From positions 102,905-166,904 of the forward strand of contig JBMNJV010000001.1 of assembly GCA_050951845.1 (NCBI GenBank): DNA of 64,000 bases. Direction: 5' to 3'. Position numbers and translations under genes: made by a program. Source of the stretch: Saccharofermentanales bacterium (GTDB lineage Bacteria; Bacillota; Clostridia; Saccharofermentanales; DTU023). Positions 21,651 to 52,634 of the stretch are shown one piece after another; position 1 is the first letter of the stretch; each line of letters starts with the position of its first letter. The notes beneath the pieces are model-generated. The model had not been told where the DNA came from. It was given only the letters and a program-made list of their open reading frames with translations, and did not search any database.

Positions 21651-21977
21651 GGTACATCTGGTTTGGCAGCATAATATTAAAAAATAATCTGTCTTAGTCA
21701 GGTAGTCAGGTCTGCCAGGAACGTATATCGCCAACATCAAAAAAAATCCGGAAAATACTGATTATAAATCCAAATTGTTGAGTAAGAACAAAAATCAAAT
21801 AATACTACTTCGTTTCTTGTTCTGCATCTATCAAAGATCTCAATAAAACCTTTACAAAAAACCAAGCTGCTTCACCATTTTTCATCTAAATTTGATAAGA
21901 TAATCACTATAAATATTTGTTGCTTTCAATTATCAGTGTTTTTACAGATCAGCGAAAGTATAAAAGGGGAATTTGTT

Positions 21978-22769: not shown

Positions 22770-22884
22770 AAAATGAACTACTCTGAAATTTTTAAAGTAT
22801 TATTTACAAATTTTAGAAAATACTGATTTTTTATTTAATAGAAAAAAATATAAATTCAAGATAGGAAAAGATATAAATTCAAGA

Positions 22885-24009: not shown

Positions 24010-24054
24010 AAAAACTCCTTGATTTCTTTGATTGTACAAACTATTTTACAGTAA

Positions 24055-24101
24055 TGATTGAAATTCAACAAGTTTTAAATAATTTGATTGATTTTCAATC
24101 A
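24055..24101. promoter_or_regulatory. Two TGATTGA-type palindromes (TGATTGAAATTCAACA 24055-24070; TGATTGA-TTT-TCAATCA 24085-24101) in the anSME/deoR divergent region
   Basis: Read directly. Related half-sites recur downstream of deoR (TGATTGAAT 24952-24960; ATTCAATA 24981-24988). Candidate DeoR operator. Confidence 0.4.
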
Positions 24102-24109
24102 CAAAATGC

Positions 24110-24138
24110 TTGATTTATGAAGAAATCTGTGTTACAAT
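24110..24138 (+). promoter_or_regulatory. Candidate sigma-A promoter of the DeoR gene (TTGATT-17-TACAAT)
   Basis: Hexamers and spacing read in the sequence, about 35 nt upstream of the start codon. Confidence 0.45.
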
Positions 24139-24171
24139 CATCAACAAAGATACAAAAAGGGAGCATAGCGC

Positions 24172-24942: not shown

Positions 24943-25025
24943 AGTCACTTCTGATTGAATTTCGATCATCAATGACCGAGATTCAATAAGTAACTTAAAA
25001 ATCAGTCAAAAATCAGTCAAAACTG

Positions 25026-25055
25026 TTGACACGTTCATATTGGGTACGCTATATT
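25026..25055 (+). promoter_or_regulatory. Candidate promoter of the PTS-sulfatase operon (TTGACA-18-TATATT), preceded by an 11-bp tandem aaaatcagtca x2 (24997-25018)
   Basis: Read in the sequence. About 100-nt leader with inverted repeat ATATGTAACAT/ATGTTGCATAT. Confidence 0.4.
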
Positions 25056-25159
25056 TTAATATGTAACATAGGTAACGGCATGTTGCATATTTCATAAAAA
25101 TCCTTTTCTATGTTTAGCCGGCATAGACAAATGGAACAAATTTTTAAGGAGGGCTACGT

Positions 25160-26491
25160 ATGGACAAGGTTATTAATTTTCTGGTTAATGACTTACTAAC
25201 TACCCCTACCATCGTTATCGGTTTACTGATCATGCTTGGATATATCCTGCAAAAGGAGTCCGCTGTTAAAGTTATTACCGGTACTGTCAGCGCCATGGTA
25301 GGTATGCAATTAATCGTCTTCGGCGGAGGACAATTTTCAAATCTTTTCAAACCAATCACTGAAGCTGTTGCTGCAAAAACGGGAGTTCAAGGATATTTAA
25401 TGGACTCCTATGCTATGAGAACAGCAAGCTTAGAGGCTTTAGGAGATAAAGCCGGTTGGATGGGATATGTTTTCCTGATTGCATTCGCAGTAAATATTCT
25501 ACTCGTGTATTTCGGAAAATATACAAAAGCAAGAGGTGTTTTCTTAACAGGTAATGCCGGTACAGCTCACTCACAAGGTATGCTTTGGCTAATGGTCGCA
25601 AACTTTGCTTTATCATCACCTGTTCTGATTATTGCTTCCGGTGTTATTGTAGGTATCTACTGGGCCTACTCCACAACTTTAGCAGCCAAAGTTGTCGATG
25701 AAGTTACAGAAGGTGGCGGCTTTACGGTCGGACATAACCAGCAAGTCGGCATTTGGTTCTTCGGACGTTTAGCAGAAAAAATGGCACCGAAGAAAAAAGA
25801 CAAAAAGATCCTTGACTGTGATCACCTGGAACTTCCGGGCTGGCTGGCGATATTTAACAACAACGTTGTTTCTATCGCTATTCTGATGACCATTTTCGTC
25901 GGACTTTTCTGCATTCCTCTAGGCTTTGAAGGTCTTCAGGAATTAGCCGGCAAGAAACACTGGAGTATCTTCCTGATCTTATTAGGAATCCAATTCTCCA
26001 TGTTCATGGTTATCTTGCTCCAAGGTGTTCGTATGCTTTGTTCAGAATTAACAGCATCATTCCAAGGTATCCAACAAAAAATTGTACCTAATGCAGTTCC
26101 CGCTATTGACGTTGCAGCTTTATTACCTTTCTCACCGAACGCAACAACTTTCGGATTCTTATTCTGTACACTGGGAACCGTCATTTCCATGCTTATCTTA
26201 AGTGCTACAGGCAGTCCTATCATGGTTCTTCCGGGATTCACACCTCTCTTCTTCTCAGGTGGTCCTATCGGTGTTGTAGCTAATAAAAAGGGCGGCTTAA
26301 AAGCAGTTATTATTTGCTGTACTTTACTCGGTGTAATTCAAACTTTCGGTACCGTATGGGCAATCACACAAATGAACTATCCGGAAGGTATGGGATGGTC
26401 CGGTATGTTTGACCTTTCAACAGTATGGCCGGCACTCATTCAAGTATTACGTTGGATCGGCAGTGTTTTCGGATTTACTATTGCTTATTAG
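25160..26491 (+). CDS. PTS EIIC, L-ascorbate (UlaA/SgaT) family
   Basis: 443 aa polytopic membrane protein. Overall pattern is typical of UlaA-type IIC. RBS AAGGAGGG. Confidence 0.8.
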   Translation: MDKVINFLVNDLLTTPTIVIGLLIMLGYILQKESAVKVITGTVSAMVGMQLIVFGGGQFSNLFKPITEAVAAKTGVQGYLMDSYAMRTASLEALGDKAGWMGYVFLIAFAVNILLVYFGKYTKARGVFLTGNAGTAHSQGMLWLMVANFALSSPVLIIASGVIVGIYWAYSTTLAAKVVDEVTEGGGFTVGHNQQVGIWFFGRLAEKMAPKKKDKKILDCDHLELPGWLAIFNNNVVSIAILMTIFVGLFCIPLGFEGLQELAGKKHWSIFLILLGIQFSMFMVILLQGVRMLCSELTASFQGIQQKIVPNAVPAIDVAALLPFSPNATTFGFLFCTLGTVISMLILSATGSPIMVLPGFTPLFFSGGPIGVVANKKGGLKAVIICCTLLGVIQTFGTVWAITQMNYPEGMGWSGMFDLSTVWPALIQVLRWIGSVFGFTIAY

Positions 26492-26569
26492 ACATATTAA
26501 ATTAATTGCTAAAGCATCTAAAATTGTATATTAATCTTATCATTAAGCATTCATTGAAAGGAGTTTATT

Positions 26570-26887
26570 ATGAGTAAAAGTTCAATCAACGTATTATTTG
26601 TTTGCGGTATGGGTATGGGCACAAGCACCATGGCAGAACTCGGTGTTAAAAGAGAATTAAAACCTCTGAAAATCAGCGCTGAAGTTGATCATACTTCACT
26701 CGGCATGATGGCATCTCGCAGAGAATGGGCAGATATCATTGTGATCTTAAGAAATCTCTTTACCGAAGTTGTGCCGCAAGAAGGTGAGTTCTTTATTCCG
26801 GTTGTCAACGTCATGGCTTCCAAAGATATCGCAGCTCAAATTAACGAAATTGTTGTAGAACATTTCCCGGGTGCAAAGGAGAGTTAA
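26570..26887 (+). CDS. PTS EIIB (UlaB-like)
   Basis: 105 aa. Phospho-Cys loop is VLFVCGMGMGTSTM. RBS AAAGGAG. Confidence 0.8.
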   Translation: MSKSSINVLFVCGMGMGTSTMAELGVKRELKPLKISAEVDHTSLGMMASRREWADIIVILRNLFTEVVPQEGEFFIPVVNVMASKDIAAQINEIVVEHFPGAKES

Positions 26888-26888
26888 G

Positions 26889-28376
26889 ATGAGAGCCATC
26901 ATTGTATTTTTCGATACTCTCAATCGTGACTATTTACCGCAATACAATCCTGATTGCGGTACCATCGCACCAAATTTTGCAAGATTGGCCGAACGCAGCG
27001 TTCAATTCGACAACAACTATGTCGGATCTATGCCTTGTATTCCTGCCAGAAGAGATGTCCATACAGGCCGCTATAATTTTCTTCATAGAGAATGGGGACC
27101 GTTAGAGCCTTTTGATGACTCTATGCCGGAAATTCTGAAAAAGAACGGAATTTATACCCATTTAATCTCTGACCATCTGCACTACTGGGAAGACGGCGGG
27201 GCAACCTATCACTCCCGTTACTCCTCCTGGGAAATAGTTCGTGGTCAGGCAGGCGATCACTGGAAAGGCGAGCTTAAAGATCCTGAAGTTCCGGAAGTAG
27301 TTCGCGTTCCTCAAAGGCAGCAAGGTGGCGGTATAGCATCAGGATGGCGCTATGACTGGATAAACCGCGGGCATATCAAATCCGAGGCAGATTTCCCTCA
27401 AACTCAGTGTTTTGATTTGAGTTGTGAATTCATCGAAAAGAATAAAGACTACGATAACTGGTTCCTGCATATTGAGACTTTCGATCCTCATGAACCTTTC
27501 TTCGTGCCTCAAAAATATTTAGATATGTATCCGACAGATTATGACGGCAAGCTCTTCGACTGGCCGCGCGGCCCGCTGCAAGAAAGTGAAGAAGTTGTAC
27601 AAGAAGCCAGAAGACGTTATCAGGCTCTGATCACCATGTGCGACCGGAGTTTGGGACGCATCATGGATATGATGGACGAGTATAACATGTGGGATGATAC
27701 CCTCCTACTCGTAGGAACGGACCATGGCTTCCTTTTAGGCGAACATGATTATTGGGGTAAAAATTTAATGCCTTATTACAATCAAGTTGCCCATGCTCCT
27801 CTGTTTATCTGGGATCCGCGTTACGGCGTGAAAGGAGAGCACAGAGAATCTCTCGTTCAAATGATAGACTGGACACCAACTTTATTAAATTTCTTCGGCC
27901 AAGACATTCCGGAGGATGTTCAAGGGAGCAAATTGGATAACGTTATCACAGATGATGAGTCTAACAGAGATTATGCACTCTTCGGAGTTTTCAGCGGTCA
28001 TGCCAATATTACTGATGGCAGATACGTTTACATGAGAGCTCCGGAGCCGGATAAAAAAGACGATGTCTATAACTACACTCTGATGCCGGTTCATATGATG
28101 AATCGTTTCACACCTGATGAATTGAGAGATATGGAGCTTCATCCTCCTTTCTCCTTCACGAAAGGTTGTTCCGTCTTAAAGATTAAGAGCAAAGACCGTT
28201 ACAACGTAGCCCGCTATGGTACACGTCTCTACGATCTCGAAAATGATCCCAAACAGGAAAATCCCATTGACGATCCTGAAATCGAAGAGAGAATGAAACG
28301 TCTGCTCGTAAAAGCATTGAAAGAAAATGATTGTCCGAAGGAACAATACGTAAGATATGGTTTAACAGAAGAATAG
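26889..28376 (+). CDS. Cys-type sulfatase (formylglycine-dependent), apparently cytoplasmic
   Basis: 495 aa from ATG 26889 (AAGGAGAG RBS). Signature C-x-P-x-R plus TGR is present in SMPCIPARRDVHTGR. No N-terminal signal peptide or hydrophobic segment (MRAIIVFFDTLNRDY). Confidence 0.85.
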   Translation: MRAIIVFFDTLNRDYLPQYNPDCGTIAPNFARLAERSVQFDNNYVGSMPCIPARRDVHTGRYNFLHREWGPLEPFDDSMPEILKKNGIYTHLISDHLHYWEDGGATYHSRYSSWEIVRGQAGDHWKGELKDPEVPEVVRVPQRQQGGGIASGWRYDWINRGHIKSEADFPQTQCFDLSCEFIEKNKDYDNWFLHIETFDPHEPFFVPQKYLDMYPTDYDGKLFDWPRGPLQESEEVVQEARRRYQALITMCDRSLGRIMDMMDEYNMWDDTLLLVGTDHGFLLGEHDYWGKNLMPYYNQVAHAPLFIWDPRYGVKGEHRESLVQMIDWTPTLLNFFGQDIPEDVQGSKLDNVITDDESNRDYALFGVFSGHANITDGRYVYMRAPEPDKKDDVYNYTLMPVHMMNRFTPDELRDMELHPPFSFTKGCSVLKIKSKDRYNVARYGTRLYDLENDPKQENPIDDPEIEERMKRLLVKALKENDCPKEQYVRYGLTEE

Positions 28377-28413
28377 CTTTACAGTTCCATTGATAAACCG
28401 GACCAACAAAAAA

Positions 28414-28452
28414 GCCTTTCCCATGATTCTCTTTAACGGGAGAGGCTTTTTT
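28414..28452. terminator. Bidirectional rho-independent terminator between the convergent sulfatase and ligase genes
   Basis: GCCTTTCCC-15 nt loop-GGGAGAGGC (9-bp stem, one G-U), flanked by an A-run upstream and TTTTTT downstream. Confidence 0.75.
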
Positions 28453-28578
28453 ATATTCAGAATTTTATGACTTCCGACATTTTGCACTTTCCGACATTTG
28501 ATCCCTGCAAATACAGGCTGTCATTTGCCGGCCACCTCTATCTGAAACCACATTGTCGGGATGTATTCCTGAAATACT

Positions 28579-29850
28579 TCAGCCAATCATCCTCTTTCCT
28601 GAATAAAGAGACTTACAATTACCGTCACAAATTTGAGTACGTATTTTCAGTTTATAGTTTTTGTCACGTTCGGTGAAAATCGGCAAGTTGCAAATTCGGG
28701 TGCTTGTTTTGAGTTTGCCGGAAAGCAGAGCAGAGACACGTTTTTGTATCTCTTCTTCTATTTGAACATCTCCCAGAACATAGACCTCAAGCTCAAGTAC
28801 ATCACCGGCAAATTCAGCCTTAACATCTGCCAATTCTTTGATACCAAACAGCACTTCATCCAGATCCGACATGCGCAAATTATCGTCAAGACGCCCCTCC
28901 ACCTCTATTCTGGCACTCACGGCTCCGCAAGGACACGGCTCCGCCAGGATACGGGCCCTGTCACCCGTCCTGTATCTTATGAGCGGCATTATCTCCATTC
29001 CTACGGTCGTTATAACCAATTCTCCGTAGTCACCGTCAGGGACAGGTTTCCCGTTTTTTCCGATAATTTCAGTAATAATATGATTCTCCCTGACATGCAT
29101 GCCCTCATGAGCCTGACAGGTTACAGCTCCTCCGAGACAAGATTCTCTGAGACCGTAGTGCGGAAAGAGCCTGCTGCCCAGTATATCTTCGATTTCCCGC
29201 TGAACAGAAACAGAACAGACATCCGCAGAAACCAGGGCGCGTTTTAATGTAGAATTATTACCGCAGAATCTGAGCAATGAGAGCAGGGGTACCGGCATGC
29301 CTATATATGTATCGGGACGCTCAATACGCATCATTTCATTCAGTTCCGCATAACTTAAGTCCGAACCTGCCCTGATAGGCTTTGCACCCAGCAATTCCAC
29401 CGCCCTTGCTATCAGCTCGCCCAGGCCGCCAGAAACGGAAAAAGGCATAGTAATCAGCACAGTTTCGCCAGCCGCAGTCATCTCGGATATACCCGCAGCA
29501 AAAAAGCTGACTGTATTCTCCAAATCCCCGTCGGAATAAAAGATCCTCTTGGAAGGACCTGTGGTTCCGCTGGTGATGCCTGAAATAACCCTGCTCACCT
29601 CCGACTGAGAACCGAGAAGTAAAGAAGCAGCGTTTTCAGCCAGATCTTCTGCAGTTGTAAAGGGAAGGCCGGCTAATTCTCTCAGACTTGTGAGATGCTC
29701 CGGCAGATCAGCATAAAATCCCCCTCGTTTTTTTTCCTTGGCTAAGAGGGCATTCAGCTTGCTCAGCTGCAAGTTATCCAATATCTCTCCGGTCAAACAG
29801 GGAATATTTTCTTGATCACAGATCCATTTATCTAAGGCAGACTTTTTCAT
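28579..29850 (-). CDS. PaaK-like adenylate-forming enzyme (phenylacetate-CoA ligase / F390-synthetase-like)
   Basis: 423 aa from ATG 29850. Motifs TSGTTGPSKRIFYS and IRYRTGDRARI. Size and architecture are PaaK-like, not long acyl-CoA synthetase. Confidence 0.75.
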   Translation of the reverse strand: MKKSALDKWICDQENIPCLTGEILDNLQLSKLNALLAKEKKRGGFYADLPEHLTSLRELAGLPFTTAEDLAENAASLLLGSQSEVSRVISGITSGTTGPSKRIFYSDGDLENTVSFFAAGISEMTAAGETVLITMPFSVSGGLGELIARAVELLGAKPIRAGSDLSYAELNEMMRIERPDTYIGMPVPLLSLLRFCGNNSTLKRALVSADVCSVSVQREIEDILGSRLFPHYGLRESCLGGAVTCQAHEGMHVRENHIITEIIGKNGKPVPDGDYGELVITTVGMEIMPLIRYRTGDRARILAEPCPCGAVSARIEVEGRLDDNLRMSDLDEVLFGIKELADVKAEFAGDVLELEVYVLGDVQIEEEIQKRVSALLSGKLKTSTRICNLPIFTERDKNYKLKIRTQICDGNCKSLYSGKRMIG

Positions 29851-29953
29851 TTTCCGTATCAGGTCTCTCCTTTGCTGTGCGTGAGTTTGCAGAAGCAAAA
29901 AGGAACTATGTCACGCTCACTGTCTGCTGCACAAAATAATATGAATTTCTGAC

Positions 29954-30379
29954 TTAAATCAAATCGTATTTCTGCATGATCAAGATGCATTTTTCCAGCG
30001 TGTCTCTGACTACCATGGGGCAGCGCAGTACTTTGTTGCCCGGATCACCTTCCAAAATCTGCCTGCAGTCTATACCGCCGTATTCGGCAGTATATTCAAC
30101 AAACCATTCATATAACTCTTTTGACATGCTTTTCAAATTGACGTTCTCCACTTCGTCATCTCCGCCTCTTCCGCCAAAATAACTTAAAAAGCACATTCCC
30201 CCGCTGAGAGCGCCGCAGACCTCGCCAGAACCGTCAAGGCCTCCTCTCAGACCGGCCATGGCACGGACTAAGTCAGGATTTTCCTTACCCTCACTCTCAA
30301 GAGCAATCAATAGTATTACCTGTGCACAAGAATAACCTTTTTGCGAAAGCTCTAATAGTCTGTCGAAGATATCACTCAT
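29954..30379 (-). CDS. C_GCAxxG_C_C family redox-active protein
   Basis: 141 aa from ATG 30379. Conserved Cys pattern: YSCAQV, VCGALSGG, DCRQIL, RCPMVV. Confidence 0.7.
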   Translation of the reverse strand: MSDIFDRLLELSQKGYSCAQVILLIALESEGKENPDLVRAMAGLRGGLDGSGEVCGALSGGMCFLSYFGGRGGDDEVENVNLKSMSKELYEWFVEYTAEYGGIDCRQILEGDPGNKVLRCPMVVRDTLEKCILIMQKYDLI

Positions 30380-30384
30380 AGAAT

Positions 30385-30975
30385 TCACATCCTTTCACTG
30401 ACACTTAAAAAATACCTGAATCTTTTTGTACAATAATCATCGTGTTTAAGCTTACAGAACTTCTCCGCAGTCCCGTCCCATATCCTCTCAATGTAATAGT
30501 ATTTCCATTCGTCAGTAATATCCACACAGGATAGGGGGTTAAAACCGCCTGTCCGCAAAAATTTATAAAAATTTGCCTCATCACCATAAAAAATATCTGA
30601 GAGGAGAAGTTTTCCGCCTCTTATCAGCAGCCTGTGAGCTTCCCTGAGAGCTGCGCAGCCATCTCCCGAGATAAAAAAAGCACATTCGGATATAATCGCT
30701 TCAAAGCTCCCGTCGGAAAAACAGGCCCTCAACATATCGCCTCCGGTCACATCTTCCCCGGGCTCCAGATCTATACCGCAGGCATCAAAACCCAGCTCTT
30801 TTAATAGTTTGAGAGTAGCTCCGCTCCCGGCTCCCATGTCCAGAATTCTGCAGGGCTCAATACCCGAATGCTTGATCAGACGTCTCGTTGTTTTCCGGCC
30901 GCCGGGATGCCTTTCAAGCTTCTCTTTATATCCCGTGTTCAGACATAAAGAATCAGTAAATCCTGATACATCCAC
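30385..30975 (-). CDS. Class I SAM-dependent methyltransferase
   Basis: 196 aa. GTG start overlaps the upstream stop by 1 nt, with GGAGGA RBS. Motif I is ILDMGAGSGATL; acidic loop is GIDLEP. Confidence 0.8.
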   Translation of the reverse strand: MDVSGFTDSLCLNTGYKEKLERHPGGRKTTRRLIKHSGIEPCRILDMGAGSGATLKLLKELGFDACGIDLEPGEDVTGGDMLRACFSDGSFEAIISECAFFISGDGCAALREAHRLLIRGGKLLLSDIFYGDEANFYKFLRTGGFNPLSCVDITDEWKYYYIERIWDGTAEKFCKLKHDDYCTKRFRYFLSVSERM

Positions 30976-31196
30976 TACTTATCCTCCAGAACCTTCTCTA
31001 CGGAAAGAACCTTACCCAGAGCCAAATCCTCCGGGACATAAACAAAGCCGCATTTAGGGCAGGCGGGTAACTCGACGGGAAATGAATTGTCCAGATATTC
31101 AAAAACCGCCTCCGTCTTTTCCAGAGGGATACCGCACTTGCTGCAGATGAGATTTTCCTCCGCTTCCACAGAGTAATATACTTTATTGTCTGTCAT
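30975..31196 (-). CDS. Small zinc-ribbon protein (two CxxC pairs)
   Basis: 73 aa. CSKCG...CPKCG. Translationally coupled on both sides (overlapping stop/start codons). Confidence 0.7.
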   Translation of the reverse strand: MTDNKVYYSVEAEENLICSKCGIPLEKTEAVFEYLDNSFPVELPACPKCGFVYVPEDLALGKVLSVEKVLEDK

Positions 31197-33496
31197 ACAT
31201 CATACCTCGTTCTCACCTTCATGCGGTGACTGTATGCTCCTTTGATATTGTAAACGCCCGCTTCGTCCTCTGTAAATCTGAGCCAAAATGTGACATTACC
31301 CTTTCTCAAAGAACTCGTGAGCAGGCCGCTTTTTTCATCGTAGACGGCACTTCCGCCGGCATGATACGCCCCTATGACGTCATATACGTCTTCCTCCAGA
31401 ATCATGCGCTGATCAAGAATTTTGGCCACATCCTCCGGTATCACTATCTTGTATTCGGGACTCACCACTATTACCTCCTCATTCCATATCTCTTCCAACA
31501 GCTTACGCTTGAGATTCAGTCTGTTTTTGCGCTTCTCGGATATATCGGGCGGGTTACCTGCCGGAGCTGCATAAACAAGTTCAAGTACATGCATACTCTC
31601 CCTTCCTTCTCTGGCGAAGCGGTCGCGGCAGGCCATGCAATAACTGATATAAGGCACATCTTCATCCTTGGTGCAACTTTGAGCCATCTTGGATGCGAGA
31701 TCCTTATTTACATAACTCACGAGACCGCCGTAGCCGCAACATTCCGTCATGTCGCCGTTATACGGAACCTCCTTTAATGTGCAGCCTAAACTGGCAGTAA
31801 GCTTACGCAGAGCAACTTGCATATCGCTATCTCCTCTTGCGCTGCAGGAATCGTGCATGATCAGCGGTCTGTCGTATTCCAAGGCTCCCTCGGGCAATCC
31901 GTTTTCATTAAGTATATCCCAGATACCTTTCACCTCTGTCCCCGTCATTTCTTCAAGCGTCTTTTTGCAAGTGGGACAAGCAGCGATTATTTGAGGATTT
32001 CCGAGTTTATTCAGTTCGCTTTTTAAGAGTTCTTCACACTCCTCATAAATTGCAGTCCTTCCGGCCCATTTGGCTATAGCACCGCAACAGCCGTTGATCA
32101 GACCTACTCCTCCTTCAAGTCTTTCTGCCAGATCCGAATAGGCCTTAAATACCGCCTCAGGCGCTATGGCTCCGGCCTGACACCCCGGAAAAAACACATA
32201 TTTGCATTCCTCATATCCTGATTGGGGCTTGGCAAGAAAAGCTTCATTGTTTGAAAAGAGCATGTCCAAAAGGGCAAATTCATGGTAGGCCAGAGACATC
32301 TTGGTCGTGCTGACCATATTTTCCCTGGCATCCCTGCAGATTTCAGCCATGTCATAGCCGTTGGGACAAGTGAAAGTACACTGACCGCAGAGTGAACAAG
32401 AGTTTATGGTCTTATTCATCAGGTGGTCACCCATGATTATATCTACGTTGTTGTAAATCTCTCTGGTTAGTAACCGCGGGTATTTGCCCGTTTCCTGCAG
32501 AAAAACACAGTGTTTTATGCATTCCTCACATTTACACTGTATACATCGCGCAGCTTCTTCCATTGCAGCTTCTTTTGTGTAACCTTCTTCCGGCTCGGGG
32601 ATTCGCTTTGAGGGAACCGCCTCACTCATGTCAGTGTAAAGCCTGGACTCTCTAGCCCCTTCTTCGCCCCGCGAACTTCCCGGATCCAAGCCCTGGGCTA
32701 TGCGATCAGCGGAAACTCCCGCTCTCCTTGCATCAAAAATAGCTTCTAAAACACTTATATCGCTGTTTTGCGAGCTGAGGAGCTTAGATACAGGAGATAA
32801 CAGGGTCCTGCTGTCAGGTATATCTCCCGGAAAACATTCATCCAGAAAACTGCGGGCTGCAGCGACTATATTATAGATTTCCTGCTCGCTCTCAAATAAC
32901 TCTTTTGTGAGCTTGGCAGAGTAAATAATTTTTATATCCATAGCCTCAAGCCTTGCAGCTTCTTTGGCCAAATCATCTTCCGATAAAAAAGGGGCACAGT
33001 CTTTAATCAGAGAGATTGCGTCCGCCTGGCTTACATAAAAACTCGTGGGATAGCTTTTTCTCGCCAGCTCCGCAGCCAGAGAAAGTGAAAACAGATCCGC
33101 ACCGTACACTGCTGCCTTTTGCTTTTTCTTGAACTTCAGCATGCCCCTCCCCGTCTTCGGGCTGCCATGGTTGATCGCCGCACGTTCTAAAGCCGGAATA
33201 TCAATACCTTCCCCGACTTCGTTCATCCTGCAGACCTCTTTGCAAGGAGCTGCACAGCCGTAAACCAGGATACGAGGAAATGGCGTGACATGCTCAAGCA
33301 TTGCACGAGCCTCGGAGAAATTACCTTTCTCTACAAAGGCTATCAGTTTTTTTGCGTCTAAACCCAAAGGACAGGCAGCGTGGCAAAAAGCGGGTTCTTC
33401 ATAAATACAGCGATATTCACGCTCCAGCAATCCCTCTAAGCTATACAGCTTTTTTTGAATATAGTCCCTGGTAGATCTCTCTTTGAAATGGTCCAT
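31193..33496 (-). CDS. Multidomain Fe-S oxidoreductase: GltD-like N-terminal cluster domain + degenerate dinucleotide fold + 2x[4Fe-4S] + two CCG (HdrD/GlpC-like) domains + unknown C-terminal domain
   Basis: 767 aa, RBS GGAGAG.
- N-terminus: CHAACPLG...YGCAAPCKEVC.
- Degenerate fold: AAVYGADLFS in place of GxGxxG.
- 4Fe-4S motifs: CIQCKCEECIKHC and CSLCGQCTFTCP.
- CCG patterns: C439..C470C471..C507xxC510 and C551..C586C587..C620xxC623. Confidence 0.8.
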   Translation of the reverse strand: MDHFKERSTRDYIQKKLYSLEGLLEREYRCIYEEPAFCHAACPLGLDAKKLIAFVEKGNFSEARAMLEHVTPFPRILVYGCAAPCKEVCRMNEVGEGIDIPALERAAINHGSPKTGRGMLKFKKKQKAAVYGADLFSLSLAAELARKSYPTSFYVSQADAISLIKDCAPFLSEDDLAKEAARLEAMDIKIIYSAKLTKELFESEQEIYNIVAAARSFLDECFPGDIPDSRTLLSPVSKLLSSQNSDISVLEAIFDARRAGVSADRIAQGLDPGSSRGEEGARESRLYTDMSEAVPSKRIPEPEEGYTKEAAMEEAARCIQCKCEECIKHCVFLQETGKYPRLLTREIYNNVDIIMGDHLMNKTINSCSLCGQCTFTCPNGYDMAEICRDARENMVSTTKMSLAYHEFALLDMLFSNNEAFLAKPQSGYEECKYVFFPGCQAGAIAPEAVFKAYSDLAERLEGGVGLINGCCGAIAKWAGRTAIYEECEELLKSELNKLGNPQIIAACPTCKKTLEEMTGTEVKGIWDILNENGLPEGALEYDRPLIMHDSCSARGDSDMQVALRKLTASLGCTLKEVPYNGDMTECCGYGGLVSYVNKDLASKMAQSCTKDEDVPYISYCMACRDRFAREGRESMHVLELVYAAPAGNPPDISEKRKNRLNLKRKLLEEIWNEEVIVVSPEYKIVIPEDVAKILDQRMILEEDVYDVIGAYHAGGSAVYDEKSGLLTSSLRKGNVTFWLRFTEDEAGVYNIKGAYSHRMKVRTRYDV

Positions 33497-33755
33497 AAAT
33501 TTCTCTCCATTTGTCTGGCAGTGCTAGGGAATAATCCTGCATAGTATTATTTTAGAGATACAGAATCATAGCCATCCTTTTAAGGATGGTTTGAAATCGG
33601 CTTATAAGACTTGTCAGCGCCCGGCATCTCAAGATGCCGGATTTCACTACATTCAAACAGAGAGGCGGTATAACCTGCCTCTCTGTTTATTATAATACAT
33701 TAATTAAGTGTTTCGCTGACTATATAATATTTTACAATATTTTTTACTGACTATC

Positions 33756-36512
33756 CTATAATTCTTTCAGTGCTTCCAGGACTACATCCGGTTTAGCAGG
33801 GACTCTGGTTATACGAGCGCCGGTAGCATTATAGATAGCGTTCAGTATAGCCGGATGAGGTGCGGTCAGTGGTGCTTCACCGCAGCCTGCAGCTCCGAAG
33901 AGGCTATTCGGACGCGGATGAGATTCCTGATAGATAACTTCCAGGTTGTCAGGTATATCCGTCGGATACGGAATGCCGCATCTGAGCAGAGATGTGTGCT
34001 TCTCAAGATCTTCGAAATCCTCGGTTAACGCCAGACCGATACCTTGTGCAAGTCCTCCGTAGAACTGTCCGTCTACGACGGCTTTATTCATTACAGTTCC
34101 GACATCGGCAACACAAGTAAATTTCTCAACTTTAACCTTGCCGGTTTCTGTGTCAACAGCTACCTCCGGCAGGAAAATGCTGTACATATATCCCGGGAAC
34201 GGATCGCCCTGACCGGTTTCCTGGTTTAGTGCAACCGAAGCGGTGAAAGCATAAACGCCTTTTGCATGGGTGTCTATTCCATCGGCCTGCATTTCCTCAT
34301 ATGTCCTGTATGTTCCGTCATCTTTCTTCATAGCTTTGACCAGGTTTTCACATGCAATACGAGTTGCATTGCCTGTCATTATTGTCGAACGGCTGCCGCC
34401 GGCAGGACCGGAGTTCGGGGTGTGCTTGGTATCACATTGGAATAATTTAATATCTTCCGGCTTAAAGCCTGCTTCTCTCAGTGCTTCGTGTGCCGAAGTA
34501 AGAGTTCCCATATCGGCACCTTGACCGTGATCTTCCCAGGAGTTTCTGACCAGGACAGTATTATCAGGCTGTAAGTCGACCCAGCACTCGGAGACATCTG
34601 AGTTATCTAAGCTACAACCGTATACACCCAAGGAAACACCGATGCCGTATTTGATTTTTCCGTCAGAAGCGGCGTTCTTTTCTTCTACGCGTTTCTTGGC
34701 TTCCAGATATTTCGGACGTGCCAGATCGTAAAGATCCTCTAAGCAATATACATCAGGTTTGCAGCCGGTTGGCGTGCGAGAGTCTTCACTTTCCTTGTAG
34801 CAGTTCATAGCTCTCATTTCGAAAGGATCGATTCCCATCTTGGCAGCGAGGCAGTCAATAGCTATATCGCTACCCATAAAGGCCTGAGGTGAACCGTAAG
34901 CTCTGAATGCCGAACCCCATGCGTGATTGGTAAATACTGTTGAATTTTTGCTTCTTATACTCGGGATATCAAGACCTGCGCCCACGAACTGAGTCAATCT
35001 GTGAGTGAGAAGATCGCCGAATTCCGAGTACGGACCGTGATCAATGTAATTACGGCCCCAGAGTGCCTGGATCTTACCGTCATCATCGGCAGCAAGCTTG
35101 ATATTCATGAAGCCCGGGCTTCTCTTTCCGGTATAAGTGATGGATTGATACATATTAAAGTTAAGGCTGACAGGGCGCTGTGTAACAAAAGCGGCAACTC
35201 CCAGCAGAGCCTCGTTTGTCGGTGAGAATTTATATCCGAAGGTACCTCCGGCATTATTTTGAACCATTCTTAAGTTTTCCATCTCAACACCGATACCTTC
35301 AGCAATCATCGGCATATGGAGGTGGATACCTATACTCTTGGAATGAATAGTGAGCATTCCGTCTTCGTCTATGTATGCATAGCCGTTGTCAGGCTCGAGG
35401 TACATGTGAGGCTGACGTGAACAGTAGCTCTCGATTTCTATTTGATTTTCTTCAGGTACGCTGTCCCAATCGAAATCAGGTCCCTTGATACAATTTGTCT
35501 CGTAATATTCGTTAGGAATTCCCGGATGAATTTCGATTGCGTCAGGCGCAAGTGCTTCAGGCACACTCATGTACGCAGGGAGAACTTCCAGATCAACTTT
35601 TACAGCTTTTGCAGCCGCCCTGGCTTGTTCCTCTGTGTCTGCAGCTACGATCGCTATGGCATCGCCGAATTGGAAAACTTTCTCGTCACAAAGTATCGGG
35701 CGATCCCAGCCGTCACATTTGTTGTTTAACGGTAACATGACGAGACCGTTGATACGGTTCTTTCCGGGAACATCTTTGGCAGTGATAATCTTGTATACTC
35801 CGGGCATTTTTTCCGCCTCGGAAGTATCTATACCTTTGATATTGGCATGTGAAACTTCAGCTTGAACCAGGGCAAGACGTAAGGTGTCCGGAGGCATATA
35901 AAGTGCATCGTCCGCACCGAAGTCCCAGGTTCCCGTTACTTTCATTGCAGCTGAAGGACGTACATACTCCGTGCCGAGTATGCGATTGTCTGTCGGTTCA
36001 AACATGAGATCTTCTTTGGTTTTTTCACCTCGCAATACTGCAGCCGCTGCCATGGTGGCATCGATGAGAGGCTTATAGCCGGTACATCTGCAGAGATTAC
36101 GGCATTTGTTGAACCATGCGCTGACTTCTTCTCTGGTCGGATCAGGATTTTGATCAAGCAGAACCTTGGCACTGATTATGAAGCCGGGGCTGCAGAAACC
36201 GCACTGTGCACATCCATAAGCCATCCATGCCACTTGAAGCGGATGGAGATTGTCAAGTGTACCTATACCTTCAATTGTCGTGATTTCAGAAAAATCAGGA
36301 ACATTTGAGATCGGTACGATACAGGACCTGGTTACTTTTCCGTCTAATATAACATTACAAGCTCCGCATTGACCTTGCCCACAGCCGATCTTACATCCTG
36401 TGAGCAGAAGACGCTCACGAAGTATAGTTGAGAGCTTTTCATCACCCTTGACGAGAATACTCCTCTTAACTCCGTTAATATTCAGAATTTTTTTAGTGAC
36501 TCCCTTACCCAT
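33756..36512 (-). CDS. Molybdopterin-dependent aldehyde oxidoreductase, MOP type (2x[2Fe-2S] + Moco domains, no FAD domain)
   Basis: 918 aa. [2Fe-2S] motifs are CKIGCGQGQCGACNV, CAQCGFCSPG and CRCTGY. They are followed directly by xanthine-oxidase-family Mo domains (GGTFGYK). The architecture equals Desulfovibrio gigas MOP. RBS GAAAGGAG. Confidence 0.85.
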   Translation of the reverse strand: MGKGVTKKILNINGVKRSILVKGDEKLSTILRERLLLTGCKIGCGQGQCGACNVILDGKVTRSCIVPISNVPDFSEITTIEGIGTLDNLHPLQVAWMAYGCAQCGFCSPGFIISAKVLLDQNPDPTREEVSAWFNKCRNLCRCTGYKPLIDATMAAAAVLRGEKTKEDLMFEPTDNRILGTEYVRPSAAMKVTGTWDFGADDALYMPPDTLRLALVQAEVSHANIKGIDTSEAEKMPGVYKIITAKDVPGKNRINGLVMLPLNNKCDGWDRPILCDEKVFQFGDAIAIVAADTEEQARAAAKAVKVDLEVLPAYMSVPEALAPDAIEIHPGIPNEYYETNCIKGPDFDWDSVPEENQIEIESYCSRQPHMYLEPDNGYAYIDEDGMLTIHSKSIGIHLHMPMIAEGIGVEMENLRMVQNNAGGTFGYKFSPTNEALLGVAAFVTQRPVSLNFNMYQSITYTGKRSPGFMNIKLAADDDGKIQALWGRNYIDHGPYSEFGDLLTHRLTQFVGAGLDIPSIRSKNSTVFTNHAWGSAFRAYGSPQAFMGSDIAIDCLAAKMGIDPFEMRAMNCYKESEDSRTPTGCKPDVYCLEDLYDLARPKYLEAKKRVEEKNAASDGKIKYGIGVSLGVYGCSLDNSDVSECWVDLQPDNTVLVRNSWEDHGQGADMGTLTSAHEALREAGFKPEDIKLFQCDTKHTPNSGPAGGSRSTIMTGNATRIACENLVKAMKKDDGTYRTYEEMQADGIDTHAKGVYAFTASVALNQETGQGDPFPGYMYSIFLPEVAVDTETGKVKVEKFTCVADVGTVMNKAVVDGQFYGGLAQGIGLALTEDFEDLEKHTSLLRCGIPYPTDIPDNLEVIYQESHPRPNSLFGAAGCGEAPLTAPHPAILNAIYNATGARITRVPAKPDVVLEALKEL

Positions 36513-36536
36513 TCTGGATTCTCCTTTCTGGATTAC

Positions 36537-36672
36537 CTCTTGATTTTCTCTCTTGAATCTCTTGTTCTCTTGTTTTTCTCGTGATTTCTTCCGATTTTCT
36601 CTTGATTTTCTCTTGATTATTTCTCGATTTACTCTTGATTTGCTTTTGATTTGCTTTTGATTTGCTTTTCTA
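36537..36672 (-). repeat. About 12 phased copies (mostly 11-nt period) of CTCTTGATTT(T) in the mop leader/upstream region, ending in 3 perfect 12-bp units (gatttgcttttg)
   Basis: Read directly: ctcttgatttt / ctctcttgaat / ctcttgtt / ctcttgttttt / ctcgtgattt / cttccgatttt / ctcttgatttt / ctcttgattattt / ctcgatttac / tcttgatttg / cttttgatttg x2. On the mop sense strand this is AAATCAAGAG-type and purine-rich. Confidence 0.85.
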
Positions 36673-36698
36673 CAATTATTAAGATTTTTACGACAAAA

Positions 36699-36824
36699 TT
36701 TACATTAAGACATTGCTAAAAAGTTGTTTTAATGTAAACCTCTGTTGAGACTGCAATTAATTTTATTGCTGACCGGTTGCTGACTGTTACCATCTTTATT
36801 TTTATTGTAAACTGTTACCATCTT
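36699..36824. promoter_or_regulatory. Operator-like elements in the mop / 85-aa-ORF divergent region
   Basis: All read directly; function inferred.
- 10-bp perfect inverted repeat TTTACATTAA-N20-TTAATGTAAA (36699-36738).
- TTGCTGAC x2 (36767-36784).
- 14-bp direct repeat ACTGTTACCATCTT x2 (36783-36796, 36811-36824). Confidence 0.4.
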
Positions 36825-36855
36825 ATATTCTTATATTTATGAAAGGAGACAGTTT

Positions 36856-37113
36856 ATGAATAACAATGCCGACATGCCTAAAAAAATTACTGCGGATGAG
36901 ATTAAAGTCGAAGTAGTCGATAAGGATACGGGAATAACTTATGTGAGAAAACTCCCTATAAACTACCTGGAAACATCTAATTTTCTTCGTCTTTCCGCTG
37001 AAGACAGCCAAGGAAAACCGTCTTCACTTGTATTCTACACCGAACAGGGAGTCCTTGGTCTCCGGGATATGACAGGCGGCGGACCGGATACCCACCGCTG
37101 TGAAGATCACTAG
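36856..37113 (+). CDS. Hypothetical 85-aa protein divergent from mop
   Basis: Strong RBS (GAAAGGAGACAGTTTATG). The ORF is conserved in both copies. No family recognised. Ends in ...GGGPDTHRCEDH. Confidence 0.5.
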   Translation: MNNNADMPKKITADEIKVEVVDKDTGITYVRKLPINYLETSNFLRLSAEDSQGKPSSLVFYTEQGVLGLRDMTGGGPDTHRCEDH

Positions 37114-37238
37114 GAATAATAATATTCCACATTTTTCAACGTAAATTCTAAGATATTCCCGATAATACTCTACTTAAATAAATTTTAATAATAGAGTATT
37201 TTTCTGTCAAATTGTTTGTCATTACAAGTTGTATTTGT

Positions 37239-37266
37239 TTACAACTCGAGTAAAACTGTTTATACT
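37239..37266 (+). promoter_or_regulatory. Candidate promoter for the NTP-transferase gene (TTACAA-16-TATACT)
   Basis: Hexamers read in the sequence. Preceded by a hairpin with T-run (37164-37204) downstream of the 85-aa ORF. Confidence 0.3.
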
Positions 37267-37370
37267 ATTTTTAACAATTCGGCAAGGGGGCTATCTCCAA
37301 AAAGTGAGCAGTTTCCATACTTGAGGAATCCTTCTTTGGAAACAGTACCCACATAACGAAAGGTGAAACT

Positions 37371-38297
37371 ATGAAAGTAGGAGCAGTGATTACGGCAGCC
37401 GGAATGTCATCCAGAATGGGCAAATTCAAGCCCATGCTCAGCATCGGTTCTATATCCGTGGCGCAGCGTATCATTGCAACTCTGCAGCAGTCCGGTGTCT
37501 CGCCGATAGTAGTCGTCACCGGCTATAATGCTGACGAACTTGAAAGACATCTTGCCAAAAGCGGCGTCATCTTCCTTCGCAACGAAAATTATAAAAACAC
37601 GGAAATGTTCGATTCGGCTTGTATCGGTTTAAGTTATCTGCGCAAAAAATGCAACCGTGTTTTATTTACTCCGGTGGACATACCGCTTTTCAGGGCAGAC
37701 ACCGTAGAAGAACTCCTGAAAAAGCATAGTGATGTAGTATATCCCGTCTGTGCCGGTCTTAAAGGTCATCCCATACTCCTCTCCTCAAAAGCAATCGAGC
37801 TCATACTGGATTACAGCGGTGAGGGCGGTCTCGCCGGAGCCCTTCAGAAACTTGATATTTCTGAAGCATATGTTTACATCGAAGACGAGGGCATACTCTA
37901 CGATGCCGACACCCCCGAAGAATTCGATCAGCTTTTGGAATACCACAACAGCCAGCTGATGCGCCCTGTCATCAAGCTCTCCCTGGAAAAAGAGAGAAGG
38001 TTTTTTGACCAACATATTGCACTTTTACTGGAACTTATAGATGAGACACGGTCAGTCAAGACGGCCTGTCAGCGAATGCAGATCTCGTACAGCAAGGGCT
38101 GGAAGACTCTCAATTCGATAGAAGCTCAGGCCGGTTTTGCCTTGGTTTTACGTAGGCAAGGCGGAGCACGAGGTGGCAGCAGCAGCCTTACCCCGGAGGG
38201 CAGGCTGCTTTTGGAGCGCTATCGTAAATATGAAAAAGCCATGCGGGAAGCGTCCGTTGAACTTTATGAAAAATATCTGTCCGATGTGCTCAAATAG
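37371..38297 (+). CDS. MobA/MocA-like molybdenum-cofactor nucleotidyltransferase fused to a ModE-N-terminal-like winged HTH domain
   Basis: 308 aa, RBS AAGGTG. N-terminus AVITAAGMSSRMG.FKPML...TPVDIPL is MocA/MobA-like. C-terminus TACQRMQISYSKGWKTLNSIEAQAGFALVLRRQGGARGGSSSLTPEGRLLLERY is ModE-like. Confidence 0.8.
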   Translation: MKVGAVITAAGMSSRMGKFKPMLSIGSISVAQRIIATLQQSGVSPIVVVTGYNADELERHLAKSGVIFLRNENYKNTEMFDSACIGLSYLRKKCNRVLFTPVDIPLFRADTVEELLKKHSDVVYPVCAGLKGHPILLSSKAIELILDYSGEGGLAGALQKLDISEAYVYIEDEGILYDADTPEEFDQLLEYHNSQLMRPVIKLSLEKERRFFDQHIALLLELIDETRSVKTACQRMQISYSKGWKTLNSIEAQAGFALVLRRQGGARGGSSSLTPEGRLLLERYRKYEKAMREASVELYEKYLSDVLK

Positions 38298-38311
38298 TGG
38301 AGGTCTGAAAA

Positions 38312-39337
38312 ATGCGAAAAATCTATCTTATACGTCACGGACTTCCGGAATTTCCCGGCGGGAAGAGAGTGTGTATCGGACACACAGACTTACCTGTTTC
38401 TCCTGCAGGCAGGATGCAGGCCCTGCTTGCTGCAAAATTTTTAGATGATGCCGGCATCTCGGCTGTATTCTGCAGCAGACTGAAGCGTGCAGTACAAACA
38501 GCAGAGTCTTTCGGCGAAGCGAAAATAATTGACGGACTCGAAGAAATGAATTTCGGAGAGTGGGACGGCTTCTCCTTTGACGAAATTAAAGTCCGCTGGC
38601 CGGATCTCTACGCAGCCAGGGGGCGCGATAATTCCATTCAGCCTCCGGGTGCGGAGAATCCGCAACAAGCTTTGCTCCGTTTCAACTCGGCTCTGCGCAA
38701 AATACTCGAGGGCAGCACGGGAAATATCGTGATAATCTCCCACGCTTCTGTAATGCGCACCTTTCTGTCTGAAATATCCGAAAAAGAATTGCCGCCCGGC
38801 AGAGAACTCCTGCCCTATGGCTCGGTGTCTGAGCTCAGCTTGAAAAACAATAATTTTTCCATTGAATATATGGGCAAATTAAATAGACCACCGCTCACCA
38901 CAGAACTCTGTCTCGAACTGATCGCCGCAGCCGGTACACCGGAACACGTAATCAGACATAGTGTAGCGGTAGCCAAAGAAGCAGGAAGGATAGGAATAGC
39001 TTTAGCGGAAAGCGGTCTCAACTTAGATATTGATTTAATAATCAGGTCAGCTCTCCTCCATGATGTGGCCAGAACAAAGAAAAACCATTGCAAAGTAGGT
39101 GAAAACTGGATCAGCGCCCTCGGCTACCGGAAGGAAGCAGAAATTGCGGGCGGTCACTGTGACAATTATCTCTTCGAAATACCGGACGAACTTGCGGTAT
39201 TAATTGTTGCCGACCGGGTAGTTTCAGAAGATAAGGTGGTAGGTCTTGCACAAACAGAAATTAAATTATACTTGATTGCCAAATCACAGCCTTCTTTAAG
39301 CTCATCAATAGTTATATCCGGTCTTAAAAGCGAATGA
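38312..39337 (+). CDS. Histidine-phosphatase (PGM/CobC-like) + HD-domain fusion protein; the 3' end probably disrupted
   Basis: 341 aa, RBS GGAGG. Motifs are LIRHGLPEF, RLKRAVQTAE and ISHASVMR, then HD motifs HSVAVAKEA...LLHDVAR. The last ~30 codons are the antisense of the deoC fragment, so the native C-terminus is likely lost. Confidence 0.7.
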   Translation: MRKIYLIRHGLPEFPGGKRVCIGHTDLPVSPAGRMQALLAAKFLDDAGISAVFCSRLKRAVQTAESFGEAKIIDGLEEMNFGEWDGFSFDEIKVRWPDLYAARGRDNSIQPPGAENPQQALLRFNSALRKILEGSTGNIVIISHASVMRTFLSEISEKELPPGRELLPYGSVSELSLKNNNFSIEYMGKLNRPPLTTELCLELIAAAGTPEHVIRHSVAVAKEAGRIGIALAESGLNLDIDLIIRSALLHDVARTKKNHCKVGENWISALGYRKEAEIAGGHCDNYLFEIPDELAVLIVADRVVSEDKVVGLAQTEIKLYLIAKSQPSLSSSIVISGLKSE

Positions 39338-52633: not shown

Positions 52634-52634
52634 G

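Follow-up and report, generated by a model that had tools for sequence, protein, structure and literature searches.

The stretch of DNA studied here, called the window below, comprises 64,000 nt (JBMNJV010000001.1) from a metagenome-assembled genome (MAG) of the Saccharofermentanales (Clostridia); its exact proteins are deposited on a 1.02-Mb contig. It carries a locus of nine genes, six on the minus and three on the plus strand, which is a Bacillota member of the conserved 'DVU_1551-DVU_1559' neighbourhood around an aldehyde oxidoreductase (AOR) of the MOP type, a molybdenum enzyme with a molybdopterin cytosine dinucleotide (MCD) cofactor and no flavin adenine dinucleotide (FAD). The neighbourhood as such is already known at annotation level, with curated NCBI models and with these very proteins named accordingly by PGAP. 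The copy in the window is a reduced Bacillota variant, lacking the radical S-adenosylmethionine (SAM) protein TrsS and the maturation factor XdhC and having a degenerate FAD motif in its large Fe-S protein, and these losses, together with domains redistributed between neighbouring proteins and a recent duplication, are its variant features as a member of the known kind. We read the locus as two modules around MOP, one for redox and one for the cofactor, with a probability of about 50%; this division is suggested by the gene order in the one-strand operon of a more distant relative (locus L090) together with the coupling of genes in the window.

Families were assigned with the curated hidden Markov models (HMMs) of NCBIfam at their cut-offs and with Pfam (Table 1). 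Every protein except one of 85 aa was given a family in this way, and no HMM placed a gene of the cluster in a well-characterised pathway, in keeping with the original prediction, made from the sequence alone, of a functionally uncharacterised system. All nine open reading frames (ORFs) were found where that prediction had put them; it had spoken of eight genes, but we count nine, the His-phosphatase/HD gene falling just beyond its end coordinate of 38297. The NCBIfam names given there turned out to be right, with DVU_1557, DVU_1555 and DVU_1553 matched above and DVU_1556 and DVU_1551 below cut-off.

The central enzyme aligns over its full length to the AOR structures of Desulfovibrio gigas and Desulfovibrio desulfuricans (1sij/1vlb and 1dgj; ~1146 bits), and its NF045668 score bears out the idea of a system built around a Desulfovibrio-type MOP. 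Two [2Fe-2S] domains are combined with Mo domains (Pfam Fer2, Fer2_2, Ald_Xan_dh_C and MoCoBD_1/2), and no FAD_binding domain was detected by Pfam. The catalytic-Glu motif GCGEAPL at residue 876 and the motif AFRAYG are kept, and the cysteines of both [2Fe-2S] clusters (40/44/49/52/64 and 101/104/107/137/141/143) are present. Aldehyde oxidation with an MCD cofactor is predicted from orthology and from the adjacent MocA-like gene. Assignment as a selenium-dependent molybdenum hydroxylase was rejected, with TIGR03311 and TIGR03313 giving 401.7 against 830 and 220.5 against 1102, and selD, yqeB and yqeC were not found in the part of the window's ORFs that was annotated.

The protein of 767 aa encoded next to MOP (FeS767) consists, in this order, of an NfnB/GltD/DPD-type domain with two [4Fe-4S] clusters, a short Rossmann relic, a ferredoxin domain with two further [4Fe-4S] clusters, two HdrB-type CCG domains and a C-terminal alpha/beta domain (Pfam Fer4_20, Fer4_17 and CCG). 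Foldseek searches with an AlphaFold 2 model (predicted local distance difference test, pLDDT, 76.7) led to NfnABC, StnC, DPD and GltD for the N-terminus, where phmmer also matched NfnABC, DPD and GltD, and to HdrB (8rwn_B; TM score 0.51 on the target) for the CCG region. Both CCG motifs, C439-C470C471-C507xxC510 and C551-C586C587-C620xxC623, are invariant in 16 diverse homologues, and all Fe-S cysteines of FeS767 are likewise invariant; in total the protein has more than 1,599 homologues. From the earlier description of the protein as GltD/HdrD-like, the NfnB/GltD-type Fe-S domain and the HdrB-like CCG module could thus be kept, whereas the FAD glycine motif of GltD is lost (GADLFS). Across the Bacillota clade this motif reads GxDLFS. 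The homologue in L090 (L090:701-3025; 34% identical to FeS767) has an intact GGGLSG and Pfam matches to Pyr_redox_2 and NAD_binding_8, and it matches the YgfK model more strongly than FeS767, for which the match is weak. Therefore, the flavin has probably been lost from the Bacillota proteins as a lineage-specific event. No Pyr_redox, NAD_binding or other pyridine-nucleotide domain was found in FeS767 by Pfam, and about 150 residues lie between its Fe-S domains. The annotation as an FAD/NAD(P)H flavoprotein ('pyridine nucleotide-disulfide oxidoreductase') was rejected, since both the GxGxxG motif and the second NAD(P)H Rossmann domain are missing.

For the comparison with other genomes, one genome per species was scanned, 318 species were found to have a relative of FeS767, and the best 80 loci were fetched and compared with the window proteins by tblastn, with counts per gene restricted to loci with enough flank. 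Nearly all of these loci are from Bacillota (Oscillospiraceae, Christensenellales, Blautia, Erysipelotrichaceae and Peptococcaceae); conservation in distant lineages is drawn from L090 and from the DVU locus-tag names of the HMMs. The gene order recurs in the 80 species genomes far beyond chance and far outside the source genome, clearly contrary to the lack of co-occurrence elsewhere that would have refuted the original prediction. FeS767 adjoins MOP in 75 of 76 loci. MOP is 72-83% identical to its relatives, against ~40-55% for the neighbouring proteins and ~67% for the 73-aa protein. In the window, the tight packing seen earlier was confirmed as three consecutive start/stop overlaps (ATGA, TAGTG and GTGA), which join the genes for FeS767, the 73-aa protein, the methyltransferase and the C_GCAxxG_C_C protein (CGA) and from which translational coupling is argued. 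Two tandem sets consisting of MOP, the FeS-CCG protein, the 4-Cys protein and the C_GCAxxG_C_C protein have been reported from Clostridium ljungdahlii (CLJU_RS11830-11815 and RS11870-11850), where their function was stated to be unknown and their study was called for (Aklujkar et al., 2017; PMC5640608). In the literature we found no mention of DVU1551-1557 or DUF7479, and DVU1558 in one proteomics list only.

Table 1. Features of the locus and its duplication in the window, positions in the second copy, and related loci that have the component (cut-offs in brackets).
Feature	Position	Strand	Assignment	Second copy	Loci with component
PaaK/F390-synthetase-like adenylate-forming ligase, DVU_1553 family	28579-29898	-	NF045666 323.5 bits (300)	54325-55644	48/48
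CGA (C_GCAxxG_C_C protein), 144 aa, DVU_1555 family	29954-30388	-	NF045669 148 bits (103); Pfam PF09719	55700-56134	66/68
Class I SAM methyltransferase, 196 aa, DVU_1556-type	30385-30975	-	Pfam Methyltransf_11/23/25	56131-56721	65/68 (syntenic)
4-Cys zinc-ribbon/rubredoxin-like 'DVU_1557 family redox protein' (DUF7479), 73 aa	30975-31196	-	NF045645 95.6 bits (60); Pfam DUF7479	56721-56942	74/74
FeS767, 767 aa	31193-33496	-	NF045663 ('diclust_near_Sec') 776 bits (530)	56939-59242	
MOP-FeS767 spacer, 259 nt	33497-33755	-	three stable hairpins; minimum free energy -79.3 kcal/mol, z = -6.9 vs shuffles		
MOP-type molybdopterin (MCD) aldehyde oxidoreductase, 918 aa	33756-36512	-	NF045668 1503 bits (1100)	59502-62258	75/76
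Putative control region separating the divergent MOP and 85-aa genes	36513-36855		repeats		
85-aa conserved protein, no family annotation	36856-37113	+	no Pfam or NCBIfam match	62602-62859	42/42
MocA-like molybdenum-cofactor cytidylyltransferase with ModE-N/LysR-type helix-turn-helix (HTH) fusion, 308 aa	37371-38297	+	Pfam NTP_transf_3, HTH_1	63117 onward, cut by window end	37/41
His-phosphatase (CobC-like)/HD protein, 341 aa	38312-39337	+	Pfam His_Phos_1, HD		24/41
XdhC					24/41
Duplication copy 1, 17.8-kb direct repeat: cluster and sulfatase/phosphotransferase system/DeoR/anaerobic-sulfatase-maturase block	21467-39254		16,788 visible bases match copy 2 except for one SNP		
Second cluster copy (duplication copy 2 begins at 47213)	54325-64000		near-identical		

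That FeS767 is the dedicated electron partner of MOP is plausible from the adjacency of the two genes, the NfnB/GltD-type Fe-S entry domain and the HdrB-like CCG module. In the redox module as we conceive it, MOP would oxidise an aldehyde at the Mo centre, and the electrons would leave via its two [2Fe-2S] clusters into FeS767 as a stand-in for the missing flavin subunit. They would enter at the NfnB/GltD-type [4Fe-4S] domain, proceed through the ferredoxin-type dicluster domain and, at the two CCG sites (HdrB-type, non-cubane Fe-S), finally reduce a two-electron acceptor such as a thiol/disulfide couple. Reduction of a disulfide or heterodisulfide is a candidate function of the CCG module by analogy, some CCG proteins doing other chemistry, and the likeliest substrate would be a thiol/disulfide couple, possibly on CGA. 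The 73-aa protein, whose gene start overlaps the FeS767 stop, has C18, C21, C46, C49 and about 30 other residues invariant in 71 of 71 sequences; such near-invariance is typical of a buried subunit, and in this module the protein would either be tightly bound or act as a one-electron shuttle. CGA, for which no relatives were found in the PDB, has four cysteines (C21, C58, C108 and C123) invariant in 69/69 sequences and a fifth, C66, in 68/69. Together, possibly, with the methyltransferase it could serve as a thiol-based acceptor or handling protein.

The methyltransferase scores 98.6 bits with NF045667, under the cut-off of 155 but still as the best match, while the L090 protein reaches 225. 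It has one invariant cysteine (C98) and an HPGG motif, and it is distantly ArsM-like with weak PDB matches to arsenite methyltransferases. Its nearest characterised relatives, arsenite and arsinothricin methyltransferases, bring up a quite different explanation, namely that the methyltransferase, the Cys-rich proteins and the HdrB-like reductase process an arsenic- or selenium-like element, with MOP as electron source or protected target. The family names containing '(seleno)protein' and 'diclust_near_Sec' would go with handling of a metalloid or organometal, yet the likeness to ArsM lies mostly in the SAM-binding motifs, and ArsM uses three or four cysteines where only one is invariant here. 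As no ars, sel or mer genes lie nearby and no selenocysteine (Sec) codons occur in the 80 loci, we give this explanation very little credit. Its remaining support is that TrsS is listed as a selenoprotein family, credited to Haft & Tolstoy 2025, in PMC13188914.

The proposed cofactor module is suggested by L090, where eleven genes follow each other on one strand: MOP, the Fe-S protein, DVU_1557, the methyltransferase, CGA, XdhC, MocA/HD, TrsS, the ligase, a CobC-like phosphatase and a homologue of the 85-aa protein. In the window the MocA-like protein is fused to an HTH domain; it gave 198.6 with NF045665 (DVU_1551; cut-off 315), aligned to model positions 2-196 only, 106 with the MocA model TIGR03310 and 50.7 bits for the ModE repressor domain. 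It is thus not the DVU_1551 fusion of NTP transferase and HD domain, whose HD half (model 198-321) instead matches the adjoining His-phosphatase/HD protein, and from this split of one model over two neighbouring proteins we conclude that the domains have been redistributed. The MocA-HTH protein would make the cytosine dinucleotide cofactor and probably regulate the divergent promoters. With the His-phosphatase/HD protein, XdhC in relatives and the ancestral copy, TrsS where present and probably the ligase and the 85-aa protein, it would supply, insert or maintain the cofactor.

XdhC (NF045664, 'XdhC family aldehyde oxidoreductase maturation factor', in L090) had no match anywhere in the 64-kb window, in which copy 2 runs past the end. 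In a sister MAG the order is 85-aa gene, MocA/HTH, HisP/HD, XdhC, NTPase, DUF4213/DUF364 and a FecCD/ABC importer, and XdhC follows HisP-HD in the close relative L002 as well. TrsS (NF045646, 'radical SAM (seleno)protein TrsS'; ~445 aa) is found in 39 of 48 loci, where its gene separates CGA from the ligase and scores 527-683 bits (cut-off 490). Related to the tetraether lipid synthase Tes, it has at its N-terminus the Zn-ribbon known from the family of pterin radical-SAM methylases and weakly resembles MoaA and a tungsten-cofactor radical-SAM maturase. In the window, tblastn of the whole 64 kb found no TrsS, and the gap between CGA and ligase measures only 55-103 bp. The closest relatives, L001 and L002, are also without it, and in L003, the next-closest, the gene (L003:4131-5516) is broken by a TAA in a stretch of poly-A, which makes it a pseudogene unless the sequence is in error; a Sec codon was dismissed because the only in-frame stop is this TAA and not TGA. 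TrsS therefore appears to have been lost in the lineage of the window. In several genomes a cysteine-desulfurase-family gene (TIGR01977/SclA-like) and a family-less 93-aa ORF stand before TrsS (L026:8692-10127; also L009, L014, L023 and L032), and the desulfurase insertion was counted in 4 of 48 loci.

The same genes could be taken further, in that everything except MOP would build, insert or reductively (re)activate the cofactor, by keeping the pyranopterin dithiolene reduced or by delivering sulfur, while flavodoxin or ferredoxin encoded elsewhere would be the acceptor. L090 does mix XdhC and MocA with TrsS, the ligase, the phosphatase and the 85-aa gene, and the Zn-ribbon of TrsS, its weak likeness to MoaA and to the tungsten-cofactor maturase, the occasional cysteine-desulfurase gene and the higher conservation of MOP compared with its neighbours would all suit such a role. 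On the other hand, FeS767 has the look of a stoichiometric redox subunit: it has four cubane clusters as well as two CCG sites, its gene adjoins that of MOP in 75/76 loci and is coupled to three others, and its N-terminal domain is the one through which electrons are transferred in Nfn, GltD and DPD. In addition, the high-resolution structures of the D. gigas AOR contain ordinary MCD and are not known to show any extra modification. We consider pure maturation or repair an unlikely but serious alternative to the two modules. An argument in its favour comes from the D. gigas enzyme, whose activity is tied to the redox state of the pterin dithiolene and whose inactive form is activated by dithionite plus sulfide (PMC3877041), a treatment that an HdrB-like disulfide-reducing site would match.

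The ligase probably starts at M17 (position 29850), giving a protein of 423 aa, because homologues have stop codons upstream of M17 and this length is also the one annotated in the sister MAG. Of the adenylation motifs, the protein has the P-loop TSGTTG (109), the hinge CPCG and a C-terminal SGKR, and the best PDB match is PaaK (4r1l; 106 bits). A phenylacetate-CoA ligase proper was rejected, as the PaaK equivalogs gave 111.9 against 700 and 91 against 646, leaving a PaaK-like fold only. An AOR followed by phenylacetate-CoA ligase is nevertheless an established route of anaerobic phenylalanine degradation, for which PMC6365974 gives the AOR context, and MOP might likewise make the acid from an aldehyde (e.g. 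an arylacetaldehyde) for conversion into the CoA thioester by the ligase, with FeS767 passing electrons to ferredoxin or a membrane carrier. The intact P-loop, hinge and C-terminal Lys motif of this PaaK-family protein and its presence in 48/48 loci would agree with such a catabolic pathway, and Aklujkar et al. suggested that the CCG pair might reduce a membrane carrier (PMC5640608). However, the surroundings of the cluster contain no conserved genes for acyl-CoA metabolism, transport or substrate-specific regulation, and the flanks differ between genomes; the further neighbours that recur in the 80 loci are XdhC, a TylF-type methyltransferase, generic ABC ATPases and shadow ORFs only, none of them naming a substrate. 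In L090 the ligase sits among the cofactor-maturation genes XdhC, MocA/HD, TrsS and CobC-like phosphatase, and gene order therefore does not favour action on the acid product. Since the methyltransferase, CGA, the 4-Cys protein, TrsS and the 85-aa protein would also be left unexplained, we hold a pathway from aldehyde via acid to acyl-CoA to be less likely than a role confined to maturation.

Run in the opposite direction, the system would be an ATP-dependent carboxylic-acid reductase, with the ligase forming an acyl-AMP or a thioester, perhaps on a cysteine of the 85-aa protein or CGA, and MOP reducing it with low-potential electrons delivered via FeS767. PaaK relatives include acyl-protein synthetases, and the flexible tail of the 85-aa protein with its invariant cysteine would be a possible acceptor. 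The D. gigas AOR, as characterised, oxidises free aldehydes, though, and we know of no AOR of the xanthine-oxidase family that reduces activated acids, which makes acid reduction highly improbable despite the up-regulation of the first C. ljungdahlii set on syngas/H2-CO2, where reductant is in excess and acids are reduced (PMC5640608).

An observation added to those made before concerns the 85-aa protein: its family is a universal, unannotated part of the neighbourhood. It has no NCBIfam or Pfam family, and the curated HMM set for the neighbourhood does not cover it. A profile search gave 1909 homologues, none of them with a Pfam domain or a name other than 'hypothetical', and the family has 162 representatives at 50% identity. 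In 42 of 42 loci the gene adjoins MOP in either orientation, divergently in the window and co-directionally in many genomes. The motif D71-x-T-G74-x-G76-x-D78-x3-C82-x2-H85 in the tail is invariant. An AlphaFold 2 model of moderate confidence (pLDDT 67) has four strands and a helix as a small beta-sheet core, followed by a disordered C-terminal tail, and in a Foldseek search of the PDB no match was better than E = 0.1. Profile searches revealed no case of fusion to an enzyme. A long form of the family (125-150 aa; P0339-P0417) is extended by a helical part at the N-terminus and ends in the same G-x-G-x-D-x3-C-x2-H tail; in L090 it is the last gene of the one-strand operon. In 20 of 41 loci a gene for a TylF-type O-methyltransferase of ~320 aa, missing in the window, precedes an 85-aa gene co-directional with MOP (L036:5410-6384, L062:5411-6376 and L081:8888-9841). 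By analogy to DsrC the protein could be a swinging-arm carrier, its Cys/His tail being loaded or modified by the ligase (and by TrsS and the methyltransferase where present) and reduced at the HdrB-like site of FeS767. We regard this as improbable, but if it were true, a protein-bound thiol would be the physiological acceptor of MOP, which would then be a new kind of aldehyde:protein-disulfide oxidoreductase.

Several points weigh against our division into a redox and a cofactor module. The contact between MOP and FeS767 is deduced from the adjacency of their genes, and some relatives carry 1.6-3.6 kb of unrelated genes between the two. In the window, the spacer that separates them is terminator-like, its first hairpin having a 13-bp stem followed by UUU, which makes it uncertain whether the genes further down are transcribed together with MOP; MOP may partly be transcribed alone. 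The CCG domains of GlpC, LutA and SdhE-type proteins do no thiol chemistry, and another acceptor is thus possible, and with the FAD motif intact in L090 and degenerate in Bacillota, the Fe-S proteins of the two may work differently. Pairs of TGA and Cys codons (Cys/Sec), which would mark redox-active cysteines, are absent from the 80 related loci. As for the accessory proteins, the window copy without TrsS and XdhC suggests that these components are dispensable or supplied in trans, as may also hold for the methyltransferase, which is missing in a few relatives, and the ligase and the 85-aa protein were assigned to cofactor maturation from the gene order of one operon type. The two modules nevertheless remain the reading that we prefer.

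Control of the divergent genes could involve MocA-HTH itself. Between the MOP start codon and the presumed promoter lies a tandem array of nine 11-nt units of TTCTCTTGATT (36565-36663), with about one helical turn per unit, which is much shorter in the closest relative L002. It is followed by a 14-nt inverted repeat, TTTACATTAAGACA / TGTTTTAATGTAAA (36699-36738), in the divergent promoter region, which is conserved in L002 and could be an operator for the MocA-HTH fusion. A shared operator upstream of MOP was not found, as the loci have no common k-mer beyond coding sequence and the inverted repeat occurs in close relatives only. No Moco riboswitch or other Rfam RNA reached the gathering threshold in the whole window, and pattern scans for sigma-70 promoters and terminators were uninformative with counts equal to the shuffled expectation.

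The locus is part of a large direct repeat. Positions 21467-38254 and 47213-64000 differ by one single-nucleotide polymorphism (SNP) in 16,788 bases (37876 A / 63622 G), which is non-synonymous and turns Tyr169 of the MocA-like domain into Cys in copy 2, and each protein has paired NCBI accessions 21 genes apart on the one 1.02-Mb contig. The copies are 8 kb apart, with sugar ABC transporter, psicose epimerase and xylulokinase genes between them. Synteny with close relatives spans 28577-39254 only, and the His-phosphatase/HD protein of copy 1 is chimeric after residue 314, with 27 unrelated residues in place of the last ~45 conserved ones. Its paralogue in copy 2 (P0312; 357 aa, same contig) and relatives keep the conserved helical tail, with L085 then continuing into XdhC, NTPase, DUF4213/DUF364 and the FecCD/ABC importer. 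From the synteny break at 39254 and the chimeric gene we infer the right end of the repeat and with it the length of 17.8 kb, copy 1 as the derived one, and a junction that cut the plus-strand operon. The left boundary falls exactly at the ribosome-binding site/start codon of a minus-strand gene that differs between the copies, a SixA-like gene (21021-~21460) for the first and a 340-aa ORF (46196-47218) for the second. A mobile element was rejected as the cause, since neither a transposase nor an integrase lies at the ends of the repeat. Neither the genes that flank the cluster inside the repeat nor those that separate the copies are related to it. Duplicated together with it is a block at 22885-28376 with anaerobic sulfatase maturase, DeoR, ascorbate-type phosphotransferase system IIC/IIB and sulfatase genes for the utilisation of sulfated sugars. 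Just left of the duplication is a gene for an EFR1-family ferredoxin (20104-20859), and further left, on the minus strand, a 2861-aa ORF with a TTG start (9250-17835).

For about 40 years the Desulfovibrio MOP/AOR has been a model for the structure and spectroscopy of molybdenum hydroxylases, with its role and acceptor still unsettled. In hundreds of anaerobes, among them lineages from gut, rumen and digester as well as acetogens, the genes around MOP point to a dedicated partner of the Fe-S/HdrB-like type and to thiol-rich, SAM-dependent and ATP-dependent accessory proteins. Solving the system would assign at least nine 'DVU_155x'-type families and one unannotated family of small proteins, settle the role of MOP in the cell and possibly reveal new cofactor-maturation or thiol-redox chemistry. 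The locus described here provides natural 'knock-out' information, with two intact copies of the core without TrsS (the window copy also without XdhC) in a clade without the FAD motif.

In comparison with known systems, the enzyme itself agrees with the AORs of D. gigas and D. desulfuricans (MOP/MOD; 1vlb, 1sij and 1dgj), which are likewise single chains with 2x[2Fe-2S] and Mo-MCD and without FAD and have the catalytic Glu and Arg/Tyr motifs in common with it, whereas the host is a Clostridia MAG and no sulfate reducer. In the literature on the Desulfovibrio enzymes the gene neighbourhood, which is central here, is undiscussed, and the sole partner proposed so far for the D. gigas AOR is flavodoxin, from in-vitro work (PMC10223205). 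FeS767 shares with HdrB/HdrD and with DsrK of the DsrK-DsrC pair the two CX(n)CCX(n)CXXC motifs after a 2x[4Fe-4S] ferredoxin domain, and the small Cys proteins encoded beside it might be protein substrates in the manner of DsrC; in contrast to those proteins, it includes an NfnB/GltD-type domain and goes together with a molybdenum hydroxylase, without a membrane or HdrA partner. The combination of a molybdenum hydroxylase with a GltD-like Fe-S protein, MocA and an XdhC/PaoD-type chaperone is also that of the Escherichia coli xdhD-ygfK-ygfM/mocA(ygfJ) and PaoABC-PaoD systems, but the locus has no FAD subunit, and the E. coli systems have no counterparts to the CCG module, the 4-Cys protein, CGA, the methyltransferase, the ligase, TrsS or the 85-aa protein. 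With C. ljungdahlii, the only one of the two organisms with expression data, the locus has the four-protein core and the presence of two sets in common; the sets there are homologous and in tandem, whereas the copies in the window are near-identical (one SNP in 16.8 kb) and 8 kb apart. With the NCBIfam neighbourhood (NF045663-NF045669, NF045645 and, for TrsS, NF045646), exemplified by L090, the locus shares families and order. It differs from this canonical form in the divergent cofactor genes, in the fusion of MocA to HTH instead of HD and of HD to the His-phosphatase, in the missing TrsS and XdhC, in a methyltransferase below the cut-off, in GADLFS in place of GGGLSG, and in being duplicated.

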